From: Bdellovibrionota bacterium
Lineage (GTDB): Bacteria > Bdellovibrionota_C > UBA2361 > JBIKUX01
DNA length: 64,000 nt
NCBI GenBank assembly: GCA_044347345.1
Contig: JBIKUX010000001.1
Coordinates: 32,001 to 96,000 of the forward strand
Reading direction: 5' to 3'
Below the pieces are notes generated by a model that worked only from the letters and a program-made list of their open reading frames with translations, had not been told where the DNA came from and did no database searches. Shown here piece by piece: positions 26,243 to 38,462 of this stretch. The position numbers and the translations under genes were made by a program. How positions within the stretch are numbered: the stretch's first letter is position 1; every line of letters begins with the position of its first letter.

Positions 26243-28417
26243 TTGATAATGATACCAAACAATCTCTCTGACCAAGCTATCCAAAACACCCAAGAACCTG
26301 AAATTACCTATGATTCAGATATACCAGAAGATGCTAAAAATTTGATTAAACAAGAAGAGCACACGCTAAAACAAACTCTCCAAACTCTTCTTTCGTTACT
26401 TGACCGACATCTTCACCGACGCAACCTAGAAGAATCTAGAGCGCGAGAGCTTACAGCCTCACTAGTAACTGCGAGGCGAGACGAAGATAAACAGCTAATC
26501 GCATCCGATGAAGCTGTCTCACATGCTCTTAAAGAGAAAGCTCGGGATGATATTAAAACTACCAACGCTCTACTCAACAGACCATATTTTGCTCGAGTTA
26601 TATTGGAAGAAGAGGAGGAAAACGGTACTACAAAGACTATTGAATTTAAACTAGGTATCCATTCAAATACCGATGCTCGTATTATTGATTGGCGCCGTGG
26701 TCCACTCGCACGTTTGTATTATAATTACCGTGAAGGCGAGGAATACGGCGAATTTATTCAAGGCCGAGAGAGAACTGGAAAAATAAAATTAAGAAATCAA
26801 CTTGATATACAAAACGGCGATTTAAAGGGGATTATTTGTCGCTATGGCCGATTAACAAAAACCGGCCATAGCTGGAAACAAGCGATCACTCAGAGAATAT
26901 CAAGGCGATACGATCAATTACCTGATATTCTATCTTTAATTTCACCAGAGCAATTTGATTCAATTACAACTGAAGCTAATACAGCAGTGCTTGTTCAAGG
27001 AATTGCTGGTTCAGGTAAAACGAGTGTAGCACTTCATCGCCTTTCATGGCTTCTTCATGAGGGAAACTCACCACTTCAACCAGCTGATTGCGCAATAGTG
27101 GTGGTAAGTAGAGCGTTAAAGGAATACATTAAAAATTCCCTTCATCACCTTCAAATCTCTGGTGTTCACACTTTTACTCTCATTGAGTGGTGTAATGAGT
27201 GCCTACCGTGTCGACCACTGAGAAGTGACTCTCCATTGGTTTACGCGAGAGACAAGCTTCCAAGAACTTTAGCTAGATTAAAAGCTTCAGACGCTTTACT
27301 CGCCTCAATAGAATTAATTTTTAAGACCAAAAATCAATCTATACTAACTAATGGATTTAGTAGCGACTCGTTAGATGCGTTTGAACAATACATAAATATC
27401 TGCAAGTTAGTTCTTGAATGTCCAGGCGAACTTACTGCCAATGACTCTACTAAACTGATAGATGAAGAAAGCATAAATCATCTTAAAGAATATCTCTCTC
27501 ATCAGCTTACTCAGGGAGATATCGACAGATATGACTTAGCTCTCATGGTTAGAATACAACAGCTCACCGCTGGTAGCATTCGAATTCCTCCGCAAGATAG
27601 TGCCCTAGGCTCCTCTTCCGCTCATGTTTCAGAAAACAAGTCTCGATTCGGTAAATATGGTCACTTAATTGCAGATGAAGTGCAAGATTTGAGTGCAGTT
27701 GAACTTGCAGCACTCGCCGGAGCTGTACCATCAGTAAGAGATTTAACTCTTGTAGGAGATACAGCCCAAGCTATCACCACTTCTCATTCATTTCCTGGAT
27801 GGACAAATCTTATGTCCCGATGGAATTTAACCGATGAAAGTTCTAGATTTATACTTCTAACAATCTCACATCGCTCAACAGCGCCAATCATGAGATTAGC
27901 TCAGTATGTTTCAACTGGTTCCATACATCTAGCGCAACAAATCAAAGGTAGAGAAGGACGTGTTCCTATTTTTTTCCAATCTCGTGAGGAATCTCGGGCT
28001 ATACACGCAGCTATTGCGTGGCTTAAAAAAGCCCTGGAGCGTTATCCCACCGCTATTACCGCTGTTTTATGTCGTAACATCAGCGAAGCCAAACAAACCT
28101 TCTCTCTTTTAAGACCAACGTTTGGCGATACAGTCAGATTAGGTAACGATGATGACTGTTCTCTGGAGGAGGGTCTTTTAGTCGCACCAGTTGGAGATGT
28201 AAAAGGCCTTGAGTTTACCAATGTCCTTGTATGGAATCCAACTCAGTCCAGTTACTCTACAACAGATGAAGAGAGAAATCTGTTGTACGTTGCGCTCACT
28301 CGTGCAGAAGAAAATCTTGCATTAGTTTCGTGGCGTCGCCCCGCAAAACATCTTCCCCAGTTGGATAGCCCTTTTGTGCGTGGCATCAGTCTTGATGCAG
28401 ATGAGGAGGAAGTATAA
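26243..28417 (+). CDS. HelD-like SF1 helicase/ATPase (RNA polymerase recycling factor family)
   Basis: N-terminal PYFAR ... IIDWRRGPLARLYY, Walker A VQGIAGSGKTSVALHR, DEVQD, VGDTAQ, KGLEF, LYVALTRA. Start is uncertain (TTG 26243 or ATG 26249). Confidence 0.8.
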   Translation: MIMIPNNLSDQAIQNTQEPEITYDSDIPEDAKNLIKQEEHTLKQTLQTLLSLLDRHLHRRNLEESRARELTASLVTARRDEDKQLIASDEAVSHALKEKARDDIKTTNALLNRPYFARVILEEEEENGTTKTIEFKLGIHSNTDARIIDWRRGPLARLYYNYREGEEYGEFIQGRERTGKIKLRNQLDIQNGDLKGIICRYGRLTKTGHSWKQAITQRISRRYDQLPDILSLISPEQFDSITTEANTAVLVQGIAGSGKTSVALHRLSWLLHEGNSPLQPADCAIVVVSRALKEYIKNSLHHLQISGVHTFTLIEWCNECLPCRPLRSDSPLVYARDKLPRTLARLKASDALLASIELIFKTKNQSILTNGFSSDSLDAFEQYINICKLVLECPGELTANDSTKLIDEESINHLKEYLSHQLTQGDIDRYDLALMVRIQQLTAGSIRIPPQDSALGSSSAHVSENKSRFGKYGHLIADEVQDLSAVELAALAGAVPSVRDLTLVGDTAQAITTSHSFPGWTNLMSRWNLTDESSRFILLTISHRSTAPIMRLAQYVSTGSIHLAQQIKGREGRVPIFFQSREESRAIHAAIAWLKKALERYPTAITAVLCRNISEAKQTFSLLRPTFGDTVRLGNDDDCSLEEGLLVAPVGDVKGLEFTNVLVWNPTQSSYSTTDEERNLLYVALTRAEENLALVSWRRPAKHLPQLDSPFVRGISLDADEEEV

Positions 28418-28469: not shown

Positions 28470-28790
28470 ATGTTTAAACATAAACGCAAACCAAAAAATC
28501 TTGATATTGATGTCTCTGTATTAAGTACACTTTTAAGTGTTCCAGAGCTTAATCAAAACTGTGATCAAGCTAATAGCCTCCAGTATAACAATCATGAGTC
28601 TCACAATCACAGCGAAACAGCTAAACGGCAAAGTGTTAAATTTTTATCAGTAGAAGAACTAAAGATTAAATTTCCAAAACTCAATCTTCCTAAAGATACC
28701 GAAGGTGGTTGGATTACAGAAAGTGGTGATAGAATTTTTTTGGTAGTTGGAGGTATACACCACCTTACTACTCCGGTCTTAACCAATTAA
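28470..28790 (+). CDS. Small hypothetical protein, possibly Trm112-like
   Basis: LLSVP near the N-terminus and GGWITESGDRIFLVVGGIHHL at the C-terminus resemble the Trm112-like pattern (L.CP ... YPI.DGIP.L). Weak. Confidence 0.4.
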   Translation: MFKHKRKPKNLDIDVSVLSTLLSVPELNQNCDQANSLQYNNHESHNHSETAKRQSVKFLSVEELKIKFPKLNLPKDTEGGWITESGDRIFLVVGGIHHLTTPVLTN

Positions 28791-28816
28791 TAGCCAATTA
28801 AAATTAAGTTCCCTCG

Positions 28817-31684
28817 ATGAAAGAAGATAAAAACCTAGAGGGACTACTTAGCAGATGTGACCAAGAACCTATTCATATACCAGGCTCAATTCAACCTCAC
28901 GGCATTCTATTAGGTATAAATAGTGCAGACTATCAAATATGCGTGGTAAGCGAAAATATCTCTATCTGGTTAAATCTCTCTCCAAAAAAGATCATCGGTT
29001 CATCGCTAGACACAATTTTTGAAACCTGTGTAAAAGATGATATTGATGCCCTAAAATCTACGTTATCAGAAAAGCCAGATACTCTTTTACCGCTAAAGAT
29101 TCATTTTAAACCGTCAGTATTAAAAATTTTATCGAATGATAAATCAGCTATTGCTGACTCAAATTCAATAAATATCGGATTTGTTCATCAAGTAGGATCT
29201 TTATTTTTGCTAGAGATTGAACAAGTAGCACAACCTTCGTTGAAAGAGAAATTAGACCCTCACATTGAGTTAAGAAGTTCAATTTCTCAAATGTATCAAT
29301 CTAATTCTATATTAGAAGCTTGCGATATAGCAGCAAATGAAATTCGTCGTATTACGGGATATGACCGAGTAATGATCTATAGATTTGATGAGGATTGGAA
29401 TGGCCAAGTAATTGCAGAGGCAAGAGAATCAACTCAAGATTCATTACTTCATCTCCACTATCCTGCGAGTGATATACCTACTCAAGCTCGTACACTCTAC
29501 ATTAAAAATAAACTGAGAATCATAAGAAATAGAGACTACATACCCAGTAAATTACATTATCACCAAAATTTTAATGATCCCGTTGCTTTTCAAAGTAATC
29601 AATACTTATCAACAAGAGAATTAGATTTATCTCTAGCATCCCTAAGAAGTGCTTCTCCGATACACTTACAATACTTAAAGAATATGGGGGTAACTGCTAC
29701 CTTAACCATGTCCTTAGTAGATGGAGACTCACTTTGGGGACTGATAGCTTGCCATCATTCAAGCCCGAAACATATTTCATACGAACAACGAATATTTTGC
29801 GAATCAATTTCTCTGCTGTTCTCTTGGCTACTAAACGCAAAGGCTCGTCAAACTGATGAAGAACAACGGTTATATTCTCGAGCTATTCTTAATACATTGA
29901 AAGATTCGGTAACTAAAGTCTGTATTTCAGCAAATACGGACTCTCTCTTTAGCGCACTAAATAATTTTGACTCAGTAAATAAAAAAGAACCAGATATACT
30001 AAGATTTGTCGATGCATCTGGGGCGATAATATCCTTACATGATAAACTATATTTTTACGGAAAGTGCCCATCTTTCAATGATTCTAAAAAACTCATTGGT
30101 TGGCTTACAACGCTAAATCTCAATAAACCATTCGTTACACATTGCTTAAAAAATTATTATTCTGAAGCTCAATCTATTACCCATTGCGCTAGTGGTCTAA
30201 TGGTTTTACCCCTCCTTCAAAATGCTCGCGATTTCATAGTTTGGCTGAGGCCCGAATTAATTGAAACTGTTAAATGGGCTGGAAAGAACAGCACTACGAC
30301 AAACACAAACAATCTGAAGGAATTAGAATTATCTCCTCGCAGATCGTTTGCTACTTGGATAGAGCAAAAATTGGGAGAATCCGCACACTGGCTTTATTGG
30401 CAAACTGACCACGCTGAACGCCTAGTGTTATTACTAACTAAAATTATAATCGATAATATGGCGCGCTTAGAAGATTTACGCGCTGTTAACAAAGCAAAAG
30501 ATGAGTTTATTGCTGTTATATCTCATGAACTGCGAACTCCAATCCATGCTATCCTTGGATGGATTGAACTTATTCGAGACAAAAAATTCGATAGCTTGGA
30601 CTTACCCTTTATCCTTGAATGTTTGAAACAGAGCGTATTGTCTCAAGCTAAAATTATAGATGACCTTCTCGATATAGGCAGAGTTTCGCGAGGATCCATG
30701 CATATCGAGCCCTTACGAACTTCTTTAACAGAGGTCGTTAATCGGGCAATTAACTCATTTCAGTCAATAATCACTGATAGGCAAATTAAAATTATTGTAT
30801 CTAGTAACAACAATCTTCCCTCTGTTTTTGTAGATCCTGAGAGAATACAACAGGTATTTGCGAATATATTGAATAATGCAATAAAATTTTCCCCTCAGGG
30901 TGGACAAATAAATATCTCACTTCAGGGTAACAACAAGTCTATACTTTGCCTAATTAGAGATGAAGGATGTGGCATTGAATCTAATTTATTAGAATTTATA
31001 TCAAGTGGTTCCAAATTAGAGAATCTAGCCTTTAATGAGTCTATCCCAAATGCTAAACAAAGCGGTATAGAGAAAAATAATTTAGGGAAAAAAGGTCTCG
31101 GGCTAGGATTATCAATATCGAAGCACATAATTGAACTTCACAATGGTCAAATTAGTATCGCCAACAATACAGAATCTAAGGGAACAACAGTTAATATAGA
31201 AATTCCCATAAATCATCAAATAAATAACTTCTTGCCGTCAGATTATCAAAAGGAGTTTGATTCAAATAATATCCAAGTGTCGCAGAAAATTTGCGATGTA
31301 AATAATAATAAAAAACATATCCTTTTGTTGGAGAGGGATTCCGAATATGTACAATTTTTTTCTAATCATCTAAACGATAAAACAATCGAGATTACTCATA
31401 CAAACCGCGGAGATACTGGTCTTGAGCTCGCATTATCGCGCTTTTACGACTTAATAATATCGGATATCACTTTACCATATATGAATGGAGTTGAATTTAT
31501 TACTCGACTCAATACGCACTATCATCTGCGTGGCCTTAAAATTCCGAGCAGTATCGCAGTATCATCCTCTTATCGCAAAGAAGATATAAGTCAAGCACTT
31601 GCCGCTGGATTTACAGTGCATCTTACAAAACCTATCACAGTTTCAGCTTTAATGGAGGCAGTAACCACGCTTCTTTTTGCGTAA
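28817..31684 (+). CDS. Hybrid bacteriophytochrome histidine kinase (PAS-GAF-PHY-HisKA-HATPase-REC)
   Basis: CDQEPIHIPGSIQPHG (N-terminal bilin Cys), GYDRVMIYRF, YPASDIP.QAR, SPIHLQYLKNMGV, LWGLIACHH, PHY tongue SPRRSF, SHELRTP, NILNNAIKFS, DEGCGI, GLGLGLSI, REC ISDITLP..NG and TKP. Confidence 0.95.
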   Translation: MKEDKNLEGLLSRCDQEPIHIPGSIQPHGILLGINSADYQICVVSENISIWLNLSPKKIIGSSLDTIFETCVKDDIDALKSTLSEKPDTLLPLKIHFKPSVLKILSNDKSAIADSNSINIGFVHQVGSLFLLEIEQVAQPSLKEKLDPHIELRSSISQMYQSNSILEACDIAANEIRRITGYDRVMIYRFDEDWNGQVIAEARESTQDSLLHLHYPASDIPTQARTLYIKNKLRIIRNRDYIPSKLHYHQNFNDPVAFQSNQYLSTRELDLSLASLRSASPIHLQYLKNMGVTATLTMSLVDGDSLWGLIACHHSSPKHISYEQRIFCESISLLFSWLLNAKARQTDEEQRLYSRAILNTLKDSVTKVCISANTDSLFSALNNFDSVNKKEPDILRFVDASGAIISLHDKLYFYGKCPSFNDSKKLIGWLTTLNLNKPFVTHCLKNYYSEAQSITHCASGLMVLPLLQNARDFIVWLRPELIETVKWAGKNSTTTNTNNLKELELSPRRSFATWIEQKLGESAHWLYWQTDHAERLVLLLTKIIIDNMARLEDLRAVNKAKDEFIAVISHELRTPIHAILGWIELIRDKKFDSLDLPFILECLKQSVLSQAKIIDDLLDIGRVSRGSMHIEPLRTSLTEVVNRAINSFQSIITDRQIKIIVSSNNNLPSVFVDPERIQQVFANILNNAIKFSPQGGQINISLQGNNKSILCLIRDEGCGIESNLLEFISSGSKLENLAFNESIPNAKQSGIEKNNLGKKGLGLGLSISKHIIELHNGQISIANNTESKGTTVNIEIPINHQINNFLPSDYQKEFDSNNIQVSQKICDVNNNKKHILLLERDSEYVQFFSNHLNDKTIEITHTNRGDTGLELALSRFYDLIISDITLPYMNGVEFITRLNTHYHLRGLKIPSSIAVSSSYRKEDISQALAAGFTVHLTKPITVSALMEAVTTLLFA

Positions 31685-31760
31685 TTTAATCAAAAAACTT
31701 CATCTTAGATTTAAGAAATATTCTTAAAAAACCGACTTTACACCGGAAGATAAAACGATC

Positions 31761-33839
31761 GTGCATATAATGATGGATGAGGAAGATTTTCGAGAATTTC
31801 TCATTGAAAGCTACGAATCTGTAGAGTTTATAAGTAAAAAACTCTCCGAACTTGAAAAAACAAATTACGTTTGTGACGTTATTGATGAAATTTATCGTCG
31901 TGTTCATAAGATTCATGGTATTAGTGGCTTTCTGGAATTTAAAACTCTCGAAAATATTTCAAAACAAGCTCAATTTTTACTGGTAGAATTAAGAAAGGAT
32001 CCAAGTAAGACCTCAAAAAACGAAAAACAAGTTCTGGTTACTTTTAACGATACCGTAAAATTAATCCTCACAAACATTCAAACACAAAAAAATGAGGGAC
32101 GATTAAACATAGAGCAACTTAATAAGGATTTTACCAGCACTATTGCTGAATTAAGAGCGAAAAATAGTGCTAGTTCTCAAGAAGCACAAAAACAAGATAA
32201 CGTAAGTGATCCGGAAGATTGGGATAAATTATCCCATAATATCTCCAGTAACACCGACAAGAATCAAATATTAATAGATGTCACAATTCTAGATAATTTG
32301 CTCGACCTCGTTAACGAACGCTTAGTGACACTACAAATACAATCGGACAATAGACACGAAAAGTATCCGGCAAACTGCCCAGATTTAAAAAACGACTTTG
32401 AATTTTTGACCACAATAATAAAACTTATAAAAAACGTAAGATTACAGTCACTAAAAAGTATGCGAGAGGAGCTTTTTCCTTTTGTTAACGACATGTTAGC
32501 TAAGTACAATAGAAAAGTACGAATTATAGTTCAAGATGACGATATCGAAATTGATAAACTAGTCGTAACGACGATTAAAGAGGCAGTATATAAAATCATT
32601 TTTTACTTTTTAAAATTACCACAACCTAAGATAAACACCCAAACTAACGACACTCAGGGATTGAGCCTCGACACTAAAGAAAATAAGCAATCCGACATTA
32701 TCGTTAAATTATCCTACGATATGGGCAGAATTAGCCTCGAAATACTTGAAGGTTCTGCTAAAGAAGAATCATGTTTAAATCCAGTTCAAATAATTACCAC
32801 TAATGAAGTGAGAACTACTCTAGAAACTCTCAACTTAAAAATAAAAAGCCTAGGTGGAAAGCTTGATCAGTTTGGAGTGTCCGGAAAATTAACGTCAGTC
32901 CGTGTAACACTACCTAGTGCTATAATGGCCGTACCGATGCTCATGGTGGAAAGTCATGGAGAACGCTTTCTGCTTCCAAGAGGAAATATTGTAAAATTGT
33001 TAAAGATCGATAATCTGCAAATAAGAGAGCAGATCGAAGAAATAGATGGAATCTATTTTTATAAAAACTATCATACACCACTTCCAGTTATACCCTTATC
33101 ACAAGCTCTTAATATCGAAACAAACCCAAACTTAAACCTCAAAGATAATATAAATCTGATAACTGTACGGGTACACTCTGAGGAATTTGGAATTATAGTC
33201 GATAATATTTATCAAATTGAAAGCTCCCTCATAAAACCACTAAATAAGTTACTTGAAAATCATCAATTATTTTCAGCTGTGTCTATTTTATCTGATGGAA
33301 GTATCGCTTTTGTATTAGATTGTTCGAAAATTGGTGATAAATTTTCTTTAATTCGAGACAACCGCATCCCTTCAGTTATTGAATCTTTTGAAACTGTGAC
33401 TACTAAATCATCTAATCACCAAGATCGCTTAATTGTGGTAAAAATCGATCAAACCTTTCAGGTTGCAATCCCAATTAATAAAGTAAATAAACTTGAAAAA
33501 ATCTCCTCTGATAATTTAATCAGACAGAACCAAGAGCTTTTTATCAAACTTAAAAGTCAAGAAGTGATCCCGCTTATTATTTACGGAGCTCATGAACATA
33601 CAAAACAGAATCTTTTTGAGCTAAATGATTTTATATCTACTGTCATAATAACAGATGGCGAGAAAACTTTAGCGCTCCTAATAGAGAGCATCATTGGGAT
33701 AACAGAGCAATCAGGCGATGATATCAATACCAATCTTAGCCTTTTATTTAATGACAAAAGTGAGGGTTTCATAACTAGTCAAATATCAAAAATTGTAAAT
33801 GTTGATGACCTAAAAATACTTGAATCAATGTATCACTAA
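31761..33839 (+). CDS. CheA-like protein: Hpt, dimerisation domain, degenerate HATPase, two CheW domains
   Basis: Hpt EFLIES...IYRRVHKIHGISGFL; dimer IDVTILDNLLDLVNE; VRLQS...EIDK; CheW domains ERFLLP...FGIIVD...IKPL...ILSDGSIAFVLD and VAIPINKVNKLEKI. N-box and G-boxes not recognisable. Start may be ATG 31770. Confidence 0.85.
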   Translation: MHIMMDEEDFREFLIESYESVEFISKKLSELEKTNYVCDVIDEIYRRVHKIHGISGFLEFKTLENISKQAQFLLVELRKDPSKTSKNEKQVLVTFNDTVKLILTNIQTQKNEGRLNIEQLNKDFTSTIAELRAKNSASSQEAQKQDNVSDPEDWDKLSHNISSNTDKNQILIDVTILDNLLDLVNERLVTLQIQSDNRHEKYPANCPDLKNDFEFLTTIIKLIKNVRLQSLKSMREELFPFVNDMLAKYNRKVRIIVQDDDIEIDKLVVTTIKEAVYKIIFYFLKLPQPKINTQTNDTQGLSLDTKENKQSDIIVKLSYDMGRISLEILEGSAKEESCLNPVQIITTNEVRTTLETLNLKIKSLGGKLDQFGVSGKLTSVRVTLPSAIMAVPMLMVESHGERFLLPRGNIVKLLKIDNLQIREQIEEIDGIYFYKNYHTPLPVIPLSQALNIETNPNLNLKDNINLITVRVHSEEFGIIVDNIYQIESSLIKPLNKLLENHQLFSAVSILSDGSIAFVLDCSKIGDKFSLIRDNRIPSVIESFETVTTKSSNHQDRLIVVKIDQTFQVAIPINKVNKLEKISSDNLIRQNQELFIKLKSQEVIPLIIYGAHEHTKQNLFELNDFISTVIITDGEKTLALLIESIIGITEQSGDDINTNLSLLFNDKSEGFITSQISKIVNVDDLKILESMYH

Positions 33840-33855
33840 ATACACCATACTATTT

Positions 33856-34341
33856 ATGAATAACTATTCTGAATTAACTCCAGAAATTAACTATGAATAC
33901 TTGGCTAATTTCCGATTAGGTAACTTACTTTTTGGTATTAATGTAGCATCTGCTTTGGAAGTCTTAGAATACCAAGAGCCTAAACCATTTTTTTACCGGT
34001 CTAAAGAGGAAAAAGAATTTATAATTGGAATCATAAAATATCGGAGTATGATTATTCCTGTTGTTAGCCTTCATGCAACACTAGGTTTGCCAGAAATTGA
34101 TAATTTGAATAAGGCATTTTTCTATGTAGTGAGCACTCCTGAGTGTAAATTTAGTTTACTAGTAAATGAAGTTGGAGATGTCATAAAAGTGGATAGAAAT
34201 CATTTTGAAGATGTACCAGCAACTATTAGTAATCGCATCAAAGCTATTCTTAAAGGTGTTTATAGAATTAAAAACTCTCTTATATTAGTAACAAGCCCAA
34301 AAGATATTTTGTCTGTTTTTAAACAACATCTGCCGAATTAA
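33856..34341 (+). CDS. cheW: Chemotaxis coupling protein CheW
   Basis: FRLGNLLFGINV..EVL, GIIKYRSMIIPVVSL, SLLVNEVGDVIKV..FEDVP, KGVYR. ATG 33856 preferred. Confidence 0.85.
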   Translation: MNNYSELTPEINYEYLANFRLGNLLFGINVASALEVLEYQEPKPFFYRSKEEKEFIIGIIKYRSMIIPVVSLHATLGLPEIDNLNKAFFYVVSTPECKFSLLVNEVGDVIKVDRNHFEDVPATISNRIKAILKGVYRIKNSLILVTSPKDILSVFKQHLPN

Positions 34342-34387
34342 AAATTTATAACAACTAGACTATCAAAGATTTTTATCGTGGTTCCAG

Positions 34388-35251
34388 ATGAGAAACCCAA
34401 AACTTTTTCTTGGTATTCAACCTATTTGCAGCATAGTTTCTGATATACTCAGCTATATACCTCATAAAACTGTAACTGACGTAACCGATGCAGATTATAT
34501 TGTTTTTCCTCAACACATCCCCTCAGGAGCGGTATCAGAAGACATGGCGCTCACACTTGTGTCCTATAAATACTATGCTGAAGATTTTAATAAAACCCTA
34601 ATCATTTTTGTAATGTCTGATTTTACTGATCCGTTTAAAGGCTTTGATAATTCTATTATCTACAGAACATCTCTTTATAGGTCTGAATGCCTTAAGCATG
34701 AGCGCATATTACCATATCTTTGGATAAACAATTGCTTTTATAAAATTAAACCAATAATAAATAATCGTCCTCGAATAAATTTCTGTGGAGCAATTACCTA
34801 TCCCCAACGAATATTTGAATTGGAGGCTATTTTAACATCTTGCGATAAGTGGCTGGATTGTGACTTTACCATCAGAGATAAACCCTGGGGAGAAGGAGTA
34901 AGTAATGCTCATCAGGAATTTTTTAATGGATTGAGTAATGCTCAATTTATCTGTTGTCCACGCGGTGTAGGAAACTTTTCAATTCGATTTTATGAGACAC
35001 TTTGTGCCGGCAGAATTCCAGTTTTTGTTAACACAGATATGATTCTACCCTTTGAAGGCGAAATAAATTGGAATGACGTAGCTGTGATTGCACCAAACAT
35101 AGATGAACTACCTAACTGCTTAATTAATTTTATCAAGCGAAAAAATCTGGTTGAATCTCAAATATTGTGTCGAGATATTTATGATAAGTACCTCTCACCC
35201 GCTAAGTTTGGTGAATACTTACATCGTTGTATGTCTTCGGGAAAATTTTAA
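34388..35251 (+). CDS. Exostosin-family (GT47-like) glycosyltransferase domain protein
   Basis: INFCGA and FICCPRGVGNFSIRFYETLCAGRIPVFV..D.ILPF..INW, the typical exostosin C-terminal motif. Confidence 0.8.
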   Translation: MRNPKLFLGIQPICSIVSDILSYIPHKTVTDVTDADYIVFPQHIPSGAVSEDMALTLVSYKYYAEDFNKTLIIFVMSDFTDPFKGFDNSIIYRTSLYRSECLKHERILPYLWINNCFYKIKPIINNRPRINFCGAITYPQRIFELEAILTSCDKWLDCDFTIRDKPWGEGVSNAHQEFFNGLSNAQFICCPRGVGNFSIRFYETLCAGRIPVFVNTDMILPFEGEINWNDVAVIAPNIDELPNCLINFIKRKNLVESQILCRDIYDKYLSPAKFGEYLHRCMSSGKF

Positions 35252-35369
35252 AGCTGTTATGTAAATCTTTGACTAGTCTTTTATTTGCACCAAAGGATCA
35301 GATTTTTTATCCTCCCCATCATTTGAAGAATTGTCGTAGATTTTTACAACTTAAATATAAGCTGTAAAT

Positions 35370-36965
35370 TTAAAGATTTTCGAGCGAAGTTTCCCGTAAT
35401 TGTTTAATTAGTTGTGCATACCGATTCAGATCTGCTGTAGCAGTCTTTGTCTCTTTTGCTTGCTCAGAAGTATTAATTACCACTTGAGAGGATTCTTTGA
35501 CCTTATGATTAATCTCCTGTAGAGACATTTTTACTGTGTTAAATGAATCGACTATTTTTCCTGAGACAACTCTTTGATCCCCAAGTAAGTTATCAATCAA
35601 AGCACAAAAACTATTTACTTTATCTAGGCCACTACTTATTTGCCGTAAATAGACACTTACTTTGTCGATTTTTTCTTGAACTGCTTGCCTAGTTTTCGAA
35701 ATTTCATTGACTTCTTGAGCGGCACCACAAACGATATTTTTTACCTCATTAACTACTACACTAAAGCCTCGACCCAAATCTCCAGCTCGCGCTGCCTCGA
35801 TACTACCATTAATAGCTAATAAATTCGTTTGTTCAATAATATTACCTAGGACTTTTAATGGATTGTCCATTCCATTCTGAGCGCTAGACACAGTGTCAAC
35901 CAGCGTAAAGCCCTCACCAGCTACTTTTATAACCTCCAAAATCACCTGCACAGCTTGAGCCATCTTCCGAGTGATATCGCGAATGATTGACTCTGAAAAC
36001 TCATTCGCTTTTTCACCCTCAATTATATCTTCCTCTAATTTATCAGGTCTCGGCAATACAGATTTAAGTTGATGTACCGATTGTTCTGCATTAGAAATTA
36101 AAGCGCCAGTTAAGACATCAACATCTTCTAAAGACTTGCTAAATTGAGTAGCAACTTCAACCAGTTCTTGACTGATTTTTTCTTGATGAGCTTTATAGGA
36201 GGTTATATCAGTTAAAATCTTAATTATCGAAACTACTCTTCCTTCTTGGTCGCAAACAGCAGAATACAGAGCGCTCACCCATACTTCACGGCCACCTTTT
36301 CCTAACCCTAAATATTCTACTGCTATATCCCCCTCACCTCTGTTTAACTTTTCCCATAAACGCTTGTAATCAGCAGATTGAGCATACTTAAGCTCACAAA
36401 ACAAACTATCGTGACGTCCTCTTACCTCATCAACTGTATAACCAAACATTGAGAGAAACTTGCCATTCGCAGCTCGTACTGTTCCGTCAGGCTCAAACTC
36501 TACAATTGGTTGTACTTGATTTAATGCTTCTAATTGAGACTTAACACGAGATTCATTAACGACACGCTCAGTAGCATCGTGAGCAAATTCTACAATCTTT
36601 GACACTACACCCGTAGCATCTCGTACAGGAATATAAATAGATGAAATCCAAACGAGACTTCCGTTTCGTCGGAATCTTTTAATAATTCCCGAGCAGGAAT
36701 AACCCAAAGCAAGTCTCTGCCAAAAGTCAGTATACTCTGAGCTCTTCGCATAAGACGATTCATGAAATTGCGCGTGATGCGTATCGATTAATTCTTCCCG
36801 ACGGTATCCCATTAATTTTTGAAAAGCTGGACTCAGATCAATAATACGACCGGTAGGGGTAAATTCTATGTAAACTACTTCCTCAGATCGAAGAAGATTG
36901 GCAGCTAGGTCGCCCTTTGGTAACTCGGATGTACCTAACTGCACTATCTGAAGACCATCACTCAT
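35370..36965 (-). CDS. Soluble methyl-accepting chemotaxis protein with two PAS domains (BdlA-like)
   Basis: Two PAS repeats (EF.P.G..GY..E...H..F..Y...W..L..G..VW..Y..V.D..G.V..I...D.T), hairpin [31 protein letters not shown], no TM helix. Confidence 0.9.
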
Positions 36966-37088
36966 ACGGTGGCTCCCATCTTAAAAGCAAAGATTTATAT
37001 TTTCCCTCTATTAACTTTCAACCCAGCAGTTAGAAAAACGAGTAGAACAAAACCAAAGAGAGGGGCTCTCGCAATGTAATGATGACGA

Positions 37089-38462
37089 TTAAAGATACGA
37101 GGATGCATAGGAAGGAGTATCTTCAACTAACGGAAATGCCGCTGAAGGTGGTACTAAGGCAAGCTCTCCGTGTTGAGTTAGGTCAAGCCCCTCAATCTCT
37201 TCAGCGGTTGTGATTCTTAGAGGGCATATACAATTTACTAACTTATAAATTAAATAAGATGCCAAGAATACGGCAGGTAGAGTTATCAGCAACCCTAAAA
37301 GATGTGTTAAAAAGAGGGTTGTCTCTCCTGTTATCAGTCCGCCATTTTTTGCAAATACAGCCGTTAGTAACATCCCGACTATTCCGCCTAACCCATGACA
37401 AGAAAAAACATCGAGAGTATCATCAAATCCAAAACGCTCTTTGAAATGCACTGCTACATTACTAATAGTGGCCGCTATCAACCCAATAATGACGCTTGCT
37501 ACCACGGAGACATGTCCCGCGGCTGGAGTAATTGCAACTAGCCCTACAACGGCTCCTATGCAGGCACCAACAGCACTAACTTTTTTTCCGCGCATTCCCT
37601 CTAGACACATCCATACAACCAATGCAACAGAAGAGGCCATATGGGTATTTAAGAAAGCAAGAGCCCCTTCACCATTAGCCTTTAAAGAGGAGCCTGCATT
37701 AAATCCGAACCAGCCAAACCACAAAAGACCAGTTCCAAGAAGTACAAATGGAACATTTGACGGCACCAAAGTTTCCCGGCGTTTATAAGCATTGCGCGGC
37801 CCTAATACGAGAGCACCAGCTAATGCGGCCATTCCGGCAGAGATATGTACTACTGTTCCTCCAGCGTAATCAAGGATACCCCATTTCATAAAAATCCCAT
37901 CTGGGTGCCAAGTGAGATGAGCTAGCGGTGAGTAAACTATAATGGTCCATAAAGCTATAAATAGAAGATAACTTGTGAATTTAATCCGTTCAGCAAAAGC
38001 TCCAGTAATTAAAGCCGGCGTAATTATGGCAAATTTCAACTGAAATAACGCAAAGAGAACAAAAGGAAGAGTTTTACCAAGCTCAGAGTGCGGAGATGCA
38101 CCCACATGATGAAACATTAAATAAGTAAAAGGATTTCCAAAAAGCCCACCAATTGAGTCGCCAAACGCAAGACTAAATCCTACGACGAGCCAAACAATAC
38201 TTACTACTCCGACAGCAGCAAAGCTTTGAAACAACGTGGATACAACATTTTTTGCGTTAACCATCCCCGCATAAAAAAAACCCAAACCCGGTGTCATAAG
38301 TAGCACTAATCCAGATGCTCCCAACATCCAAGCCGTATCAGCTCCATTAATTTCACCATTAACTAATAAATTTGCTGTTTCATTTGCACGAAAGCCATCA
38401 AGCCCGATACAGCAGATAGCTAAAAGTAAAAATCCCCATCCGAACTTCTGTTGCACAAACAC
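37089..38462 (-). CDS. amtB: Ammonium transporter
   Basis: DTAW, LMTPGLGFFYAG, FQLKFAIITPAL, DYAGGTVVH, WFGWFGFNAGS, DDTLDVFSCHG (twin His present). Confidence 0.95.
   Translation of the reverse strand: MFVQQKFGWGFLLLAICCIGLDGFRANETANLLVNGEINGADTAWMLGASGLVLLMTPGLGFFYAGMVNAKNVVSTLFQSFAAVGVVSIVWLVVGFSLAFGDSIGGLFGNPFTYLMFHHVGASPHSELGKTLPFVLFALFQLKFAIITPALITGAFAERIKFTSYLLFIALWTIIVYSPLAHLTWHPDGIFMKWGILDYAGGTVVHISAGMAALAGALVLGPRNAYKRRETLVPSNVPFVLLGTGLLWFGWFGFNAGSSLKANGEGALAFLNTHMASSVALVVWMCLEGMRGKKVSAVGACIGAVVGLVAITPAAGHVSVVASVIIGLIAATISNVAVHFKERFGFDDTLDVFSCHGLGGIVGMLLTAVFAKNGGLITGETTLFLTHLLGLLITLPAVFLASYLIYKLVNCICPLRITTAEEIEGLDLTQHGELALVPPSAAFPLVEDTPSYASSYL

Follow-up and report, generated by a model that had tools for sequence, protein, structure and literature searches.

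Among the described chemosensory systems, the nearest precedent for a CheA protein deprived of its own kinase activity is CheA3 of Cereibacter (Rhodobacter) sphaeroides, which is reported to combine a degenerate HATPase domain with a CheW domain and a P1 domain that can be phosphorylated, to belong to a cytoplasmic array and to be phosphorylated in trans, acting also as a phosphatase of CheY6 (PMC10782961, PMC6829392). In a survey of 13,673 CheA proteins, the kinase domain is treated as universal and the CheA3/CheA4 split is called unique, and a duplicated CheW domain is attributed to 99% of the CheAs of the F5 class, a class without P2 (PMC10782961). A connection between a phytochrome-type kinase and chemotaxis proteins has been reported for Ppr of Rhodocista centenaria, whose kinase domain binds CheW with a KD of about 130 nM and probably CheAY (PMC2993699). 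Here we analyse a locus of a Bdellovibrionota bacterium (assembly GCA_044347345.1), lying in a stretch of 64,000 nucleotides (positions 32,001 to 96,000 of contig JBIKUX010000001.1), hereafter the window, in which the gene of a hybrid bacteriophytochrome kinase precedes those of a kinase-dead CheA (CheA*), CheW, an exostosin/GT47-like glycosyltransferase and a soluble methyl-accepting chemotaxis protein (MCP). Contigs of this genome (G000) are designated by C-numbers, the window being on C45, and fetched loci of relatives by L-numbers.

A CheA protein without an ATP-binding site

The first-pass annotation of the window had proposed that CheA* is incapable of autophosphorylation, and this is borne out by the loss of its N, G1, F and G2 boxes and the shortening of P4. 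In Pfam searches, CheA* gave a weak Hpt match (E 0.0045) and two CheW domains, with no match to HATPase_c or H-kinase_dim. P4 spans 158 residues, compared with 184 in 19/19 orthologues, a net deletion of 26 residues with which the ATP lid was lost, and only 15 of the 85 columns invariant in the 19 orthologues are kept. P3, also unmatched in Pfam, keeps 9 of 32 invariant columns and is modelled as two helices. The structural model of CheA*, built on a 111-row alignment (pLDDT 79), matches the CheA structures 1b3q and 3ja6 and isolated P4 structures, and P4 is still modelled as a GHKL fold, a result towards which the alignment input itself biases the model. In the alignment, the ATP-binding site is gone, and in the model the P4 fold is kept. 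The CheW (P5) domain required of a CheA is present, as is the second CheW domain.

The same annotation held that the Hpt histidine is retained, and His49 (31905-31907) does align with the histidines of 1tqg and 1i5n. The glycine at H+4, reported as required for relay transfer (PMC6341664), is also kept. Three other positions of P1 are substituted: Lys to His at H+3, His to Lys at H+19, and Glu to Gln at H+22. This glutamate (Glu67) has been linked to autophosphorylation (PMC3904827), which the P1 of a kinase-dead CheA* no longer needs. The HKxHG motif is present in the solved Hpt 3myf (HKLHG), and Gln at H+22 is found in 8rqj, in Ypd1 and in the hybrid Hpt on C7 of this genome. Convergence of P1 on a relay motif was tested and found not to be diagnostic, since the motif, tolerated elsewhere, is absent from the 43 non-CheA Hpts of the class that could be parsed; it thus permits relay use but does not point to it. 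A complex prediction between the phytochrome REC (residues 828-955) and the P1 of CheA* (1-130) scored 0.21 against a mark of 0.32, and was used neither way.

The two partners of CheA* in an array are also recognisable. CheW keeps 23 of 42 invariant columns. The MCP, as had been predicted, is soluble, with two N-terminal PAS domains and no transmembrane stretch (maximum 19-residue hydropathy 1.48). Its hairpin aligns without gaps with the operon MCPs of relatives, the tip being 59% identical to 15 of their receptors, against 16-19% in the flanking and methylation helices; the erosion of the methylation helices is consistent with CheR and CheB having been lost. F5 receptors fall in heptad length class 38H, to which this MCP may belong, and no close relative of the protein was found in the sequence search. 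A tryptophan occupies the same motif in both PAS domains; it may be equivalent to the FAD-linked tryptophan of the receptor AerC. By analogy, the PAS-PAS receptor is probably FAD-binding and redox-sensing.

This locus holds the only CheW gene, the only CheW-bearing CheA and the only MCP of the genome (2.53 Mb, 95.8% complete). Neither CheR, CheB nor CheX was found genome-wide with Pfam and with profiles built from relatives, and a second CheA-type kinase was not found, the P3-P4 profile matching only CheA* besides weak matches to ordinary kinases. Within the window, the reported absence of cheY, cheR and cheB holds, the receiver domain of the phytochrome being the only one, and stand-alone CheY-like genes lie on other contigs (C37:73380, and C63:75637 after fliA). 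The flagellar equipment of the genome includes nine flagellin-domain matches, FliM and FliN. Elsewhere in it, an ATPase of type II/IV secretion (MshEN-T2SSE), to whose C-terminus a receiver domain is fused, adjoins a REC-Hpt protein (G000:C7:7746-10136; L061:7746-10109).

Origin, uneven decay and layout of the locus

In relatives of the same order, 19 orthologous operons contain cheA (with two CheW domains), cheW, a PAS MCP, cheY, cheB and cheR, and are frequently preceded by a stand-alone Hpt gene. The window locus corresponds to this F5-type operon stripped to cheA, cheW and the MCP gene, with the MCP gene inverted relative to the operon order of the relatives, a GT47 gene inserted, and the phytochrome in the upstream slot where 7 fetched loci carry the stand-alone Hpt gene. 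Those Hpt genes, which are CheA-P1-like, have His, Lys, His and Glu intact (L031:10869-11246, L032:5232-5609, L039, L041, L042, L043, L049). The contig of L036 (G053:C67) carries a second, exactly inverted copy of cheA-cheW, which is probably an artefact of assembly. From its architecture and the presence of these relatives among its best matches (183 bits, against 196 for the best match), vertical descent of CheA* is inferred; a quick tree was unable to place the protein, given its very long branch (length 10, the median being 0.64). The GC content of CheA* at codon positions 1-2 is at the 0.4th percentile of 1385 open reading frames (ORFs), and that at position 3 (GC3) is ordinary, which disfavours transfer from a low-GC donor.

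The decay of CheA* has been strongly uneven. Retention was expressed as the identity of the query to its relatives divided by the identity among them (18 relatives, one truncated row having been dropped), giving ratios of 0.58 (0.47-0.70) for P1, 0.50 and 0.45 for the first and second CheW domains, 0.30 for P3 and 0.26 (0.19-0.34) for P4. Compared with P4, retention is about twofold better in P1, in both CheW domains and in the receptor tip, although the figure for P1 may partly reflect folding constraint alone. The acceleration is gene-specific, FliM being 72% identical to that of relatives, compared with 77% among them. All the reading frames are open despite the long divergence, and in a simulation of neutral decay of 160 P4 codons to 25-40% identity, with the query as stand-in for the ancestor and no indels, 0/300 runs were free of stop codons at each of three targets. 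Selective decay and open frames together indicate that the array contacts and P1 were long under selection after ATP binding had been lost.

The window DNA is present in lake and freshwater sequencing runs; no relative of the same family was found among the 60 nearest genomes. In run X12, short patches of alleles with 6-9% divergence occur at 31548-31689 and 33114-33278 in contigs otherwise identical, possibly recombined tracts or a second strain. A metagenome scan with CheA* found no locus, records of the genome itself possibly lying outside the scan. RNA-library contigs, from three runs of one study in which DNA in the libraries is not excluded, cover parts of cheA*, cheW, GT47 and MCP, and the stretch from cheA* to efp in part; some bridge cheA*-cheW, cheW-GT47 and amt-MCP. 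They give no cover in the phytochrome bins 28706-31411 and little on helD, holes in the contig cover that prove nothing about co-transcription of the phytochrome gene with cheA*.

The five ORFs and the arrangement described for them, a co-oriented and tightly packed run closed by a convergent MCP gene, were found intact by ORF check and Pfam (Table 1). The phytochrome gene is separated from cheA* by 76 bp, cheA* overlaps cheW or, with the alternative cheW start, lies 16 bp from it, and gaps of 46 and 118 bp separate cheW from GT47 and GT47 from the convergent MCP gene. In databases, cheA* starts at the ATGs 31770/31773 instead of 31761. A scan for promoters and terminators was uninformative (promoter-like sites: 19 found, 33 expected; terminator-like sites: 6 found, 4.9 expected). 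The GT47 gene is regarded as a co-oriented passenger, its homologue being absent from every fetched che or phytochrome locus, and orf106 has neither family assignment nor homologue. Upstream lies a gene for a HelD-like RNA polymerase recycling helicase (window 26243-28417; NF041464, under cut-off), present in 18/20 relatives searched and with a different downstream neighbourhood in the 10 fetched. On the other side, the MCP gene follows amtB on the minus strand, with 123 bp between them (window 36965-37089); this gap contains a terminator-like hairpin (37070-37058) and is crossed by RNA-library contigs from two runs.

Table 1. Features of the phytochrome-CheA* locus, in window coordinates
Feature	Position	Strand	Remarks
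Orphan ORF, 106 aa (orf106)	28470..28790	+	26 bp upstream of the phytochrome gene; membership doubtful
Bacteriophytochrome hybrid kinase, 955 aa	28817..31684	+	PAS_2-GAF-PHY-HisKA-HATPase-REC by Pfam; only PHY in the genome
CheA* pseudokinase	31761..33839	+	P1(Hpt)-linker-P3-P4(dead)-CheW-CheW; F5-type architecture; only CheA of the genome
P1 phospho-His motif HKIHG	31905..31919	+	From alignment
Destroyed ATP site: N-box and G1 remnants, junction where the ATP lid/G2 box is deleted	32583..32825	+	
CheW adaptor	33820..34341	+	Probable start ATG 33856
Exostosin/GT47-like glycosyltransferase	34388..35251	+	Pfam E 8e-12, over cut-off
Soluble PAS-PAS MCP	35370..36965	-	Only MCP of the genome
MCP tip binding CheA/CheW	35763-35831	-	Within the MCP gene

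Candidate phosphate donors and rival explanations

The reading that we tentatively prefer, with a confidence somewhat short of even, joins two propositions: that the array, as a remnant of the order-wide F5-type operon, has been maintained under selection after the death of its kinase and, by analogy with CheA3 and its partner CheA4, that the P1 of CheA* would be loaded in trans from a receiver domain. Thus, MCP, CheW and CheA* would form a cytoplasmic array unable to adapt, in which P1 would act as an Hpt receiving phosphate from a receiver domain and delivering it to CheY or another regulator, or would serve as a sink for CheY. In the off state, receptors are reported to keep P1 sequestered on the kinase core (bioRxiv 2020.03.27.011866), and the PAS-PAS receptor might conceivably gate the accessibility of P1 through its docking to the dead P4.

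Regarding the donor, the phytochrome is the best single candidate, since it is a rare, apparently acquired hybrid kinase located 76 bp upstream of a CheA needing one. An alignment with 19 relatives indicates that the motifs of the chromophore region and of the PHY tongue are kept (Cys14, PASDIP, His283, WAG and PRRSF), as are the H-box His570, the N, G1 and G2 boxes, and Asp883 and Lys938 of REC; degeneration is seen in the F box and in the first acidic pair of REC. The protein therefore appears to be equipped for a His-Asp relay. It shares 35% identity with its nearest relative, and PHY domains are rare, occurring in 5/91 genomes of the order and 8/124 of the phylum. A search with PF01126 gave no heme oxygenase in the genome; however, a profile built from phytochrome-adjacent heme oxygenases overturned the idea that the genome lacks one, matching a divergent heme-oxygenase-like gene unlinked to the phytochrome (G000:C3:65765-66487, E 2e-28) whose product is weak in Pfam (E 0.054) and could be the source of biliverdin.

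The first-pass annotation had gone further, suggesting that the phytochrome could be the phosphodonor of P1. In this light-input model, red/far-red-controlled autophosphorylation of the phytochrome would feed REC and then P1 (the relay path possibly being His570 to Asp883 to His49), with the redox-sensing array gating the relay, and the outcome would be a flagellar motor controlled by two inputs and without adaptation. What suggests the link from the phytochrome to P1 is the adjacency of their genes, and this model as a whole seems to us somewhat unlikely.

Several observations weigh against trans-loading of P1 and against the phytochrome as its source. The residues substituted around the P1 histidine, namely H+3 Lys, H+19 His and H+22 Glu, are kept in 166, 166 and 167, respectively, of 167 CheA relatives, and the retention of the histidine alone is unsurprising because 15 of 25 invariant P1 columns are kept. 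Non-CheA Hpts of the class do not resemble CheA* at these positions either: among the 43 that could be parsed (10 of the set of 53 were not), 40 have Lys/Arg and none has His at H+3, and at H+22 there is Glu in 39 and Gln in none. Moreover, the genome encodes two other Hpt domains (C5, C7) that could be alternative phosphate acceptors, and at least five other hybrid kinases that could be alternative donors. Within the fetched flanks of the 19 orthologous che operons, no phytochrome was found, and a cheA-cheW pair adjoins the phytochrome in 0 of 168 phytochrome loci (8 from the phylum, the others being the top 80 from each of two sets of about 600 matches; only 90 of the 168 are at least 15 kb long). 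In addition, a search of 1.84 billion representatives gave nothing related to CheA* in the range from 28% to 100% identity, and the arrangement is known from one species. Finally, the alleles recovered in one DNA run show 9 nonsynonymous and 2 synonymous differences in the phytochrome REC and 7 and 3 in CheA*; pooling the REC and first CheW stretches gives 16 nonsynonymous and 5 synonymous differences, with an omega of 0.96 (P 0.0009 when compared with omega 0.2). In the neighbours helD, GT47 and amt of that run, there were 0 nonsynonymous and 4 synonymous differences. This sample consists of single contigs at a depth under 5 from one species.

Some che-profile match was obtained in 11 of the 168 phytochrome loci, corresponding to one full CheA, two MCPs, three CheB or CheB-CheR proteins and five weak Hpt/kinase matches; the full CheA, in L180, is about 5.5 kb from the phytochrome, with photosynthesis-like genes between. 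In Microcoleus-type loci (L151:2838-3728; also L218 and L219), a protein of 297 aa that begins like a CheA Hpt is encoded just upstream of the phytochrome kinase. A natural pairing of hybrid kinase and CheA occurs in the order itself, as a cassette of a REC-histidine kinase, a stand-alone REC and an active CheA with all boxes intact (L057:4843-8309, L058:7926-11415, L059:363-3891, L060:4541-7832, L031:13549-17892); in L057-L060 it is flanked by neither cheW nor an MCP gene.

Of the alternatives, the one that survives best, which we nevertheless hold to be unlikely, is that the array is a scaffold working without phosphorylation, used for positioning or binding some effector, with P1 purely structural and the phytochrome an unrelated insertion, signalling through the C5 Hpt or with its REC as a sink. 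The loss of three residues around the P1 histidine would suit it, and the locus resembles a spot of insertion and rearrangement, with the MCP gene inverted and GT47 and orf106 inserted; in 10 relatives, all of these window genes are missing from the region that follows helD. However, P1 is the best-retained domain of CheA*, even though an N-terminal domain is easily lost, and neither a ParA-like nor any other effector gene was found in the locus.

It is still more doubtful, in our opinion, that the system is a relic on its way out, having either lost its function recently or come to be very weakly selected in a small genome. Loss of chemotaxis with flagella kept is common in this order: 16 of 54 FliM-positive relatives give no match to CheW or to the CheA dimerisation domain, 11 of them being at least 90% complete. 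The CheY-binding motif of FliM persists in 11/11 relatives without a CheW match that were examined (L323-L333), so the motif was rejected as evidence for chemotaxis and its presence in the FliM of this genome (G000:C63:65844-66875) is uninformative. The near-neutral strain alleles, and a GC content of CheA* at codon positions 1-2 that is among the lowest of the genome beside an ordinary GC3, would also be expected of a relic. Nevertheless, four frames have stayed open over a very long branch, and the decay is strongly non-uniform and favours the array contacts, so that any loss could only be a recent one.

We consider it very unlikely that the phytochrome kinase docks, in the manner of Ppr, on CheW or on the second CheW domain of CheA*, replacing the dead kinase and phosphorylating CheY directly. 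Such a bypass of P1 has in its favour the reported binding of CheW by the Ppr kinase domain (PMC2993699) and the retention of that second domain (ratio 0.45), but it would leave the retention of P1 unexplained, and the preferred acceptor of a hybrid kinase is normally the REC that it carries itself.

Comparison with known systems

Irrespective of its function, the locus, with receptor, adaptor and CheA scaffold maintained in a genome where no active CheA was found, shows that array assembly and P1 are selectable without autophosphorylation. If the phytochrome were the donor, a chemotaxis array would here have been rewired in nature to work as a light-fed phosphorelay, and the locus would directly test whether receptors can signal through access to P1 alone. 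Taking into account that all the proteins are soluble, an in vitro test would be easy. The first-pass annotation had not recognised the arrangement from described systems; this stands for the combination, no phytochrome operon with a dead CheA having been found in the literature searched, which was thin in subscription papers, and does not extend to the parts, for which CheA3 (PMC10782961) and Ppr (PMC2993699) offer precedents.

The phytochrome shares its domain order and its chromophore and kinase motifs with hybrid bacteriophytochromes, from which it differs in its distance to the nearest relative (35% identity), its degenerate F box, the lack of an adjacent heme oxygenase and a unique neighbourhood. 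Like Ppr of Rhodocista centenaria, it is a phytochrome-type kinase linked to CheW/CheA; however, Ppr has a PYP domain and works beside an active CheAY, whereas here a PAS-GAF-PHY-HK-REC hybrid stands beside a dead CheA. The MCP resembles AerC of Azospirillum brasilense, described as a PAS_FAD2 receptor (PMC13401364), in being soluble and having two N-terminal PAS domains, and differs from it in its eroded methylation helices, FAD binding being here only predicted.

With the F5 systems (Che1 of Azospirillum, Che1 of R. centenum, Caulobacter), the locus shares the two CheW domains of CheA and the lack of P2. Compared with that class, its kinase is dead and has no C-terminal REC, the MCP gene is inverted, searches of the genome gave no cheB, cheR or cheX, and CheY-like genes occur only on other contigs. 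The likeness to CheA3 lies in a pseudokinase CheA that retains the P1 histidine and a CheW domain. The CheA3 operon includes CheA4, CheB, CheR and CheY, whereas neither a CheA4-like protein nor CheR, CheB or CheX was found in this genome; CheA* also differs in its F5 architecture with two CheW domains, and any donor would here have to be a receiver domain. By analogy, CheA* would work most like CheA3, yet it falls outside the CheA3/CheA4 system, having no CheA4, and outside the active CheAs, and what is distinct in it is the kept histidine in a genome where no active CheA was found, next to a phytochrome.

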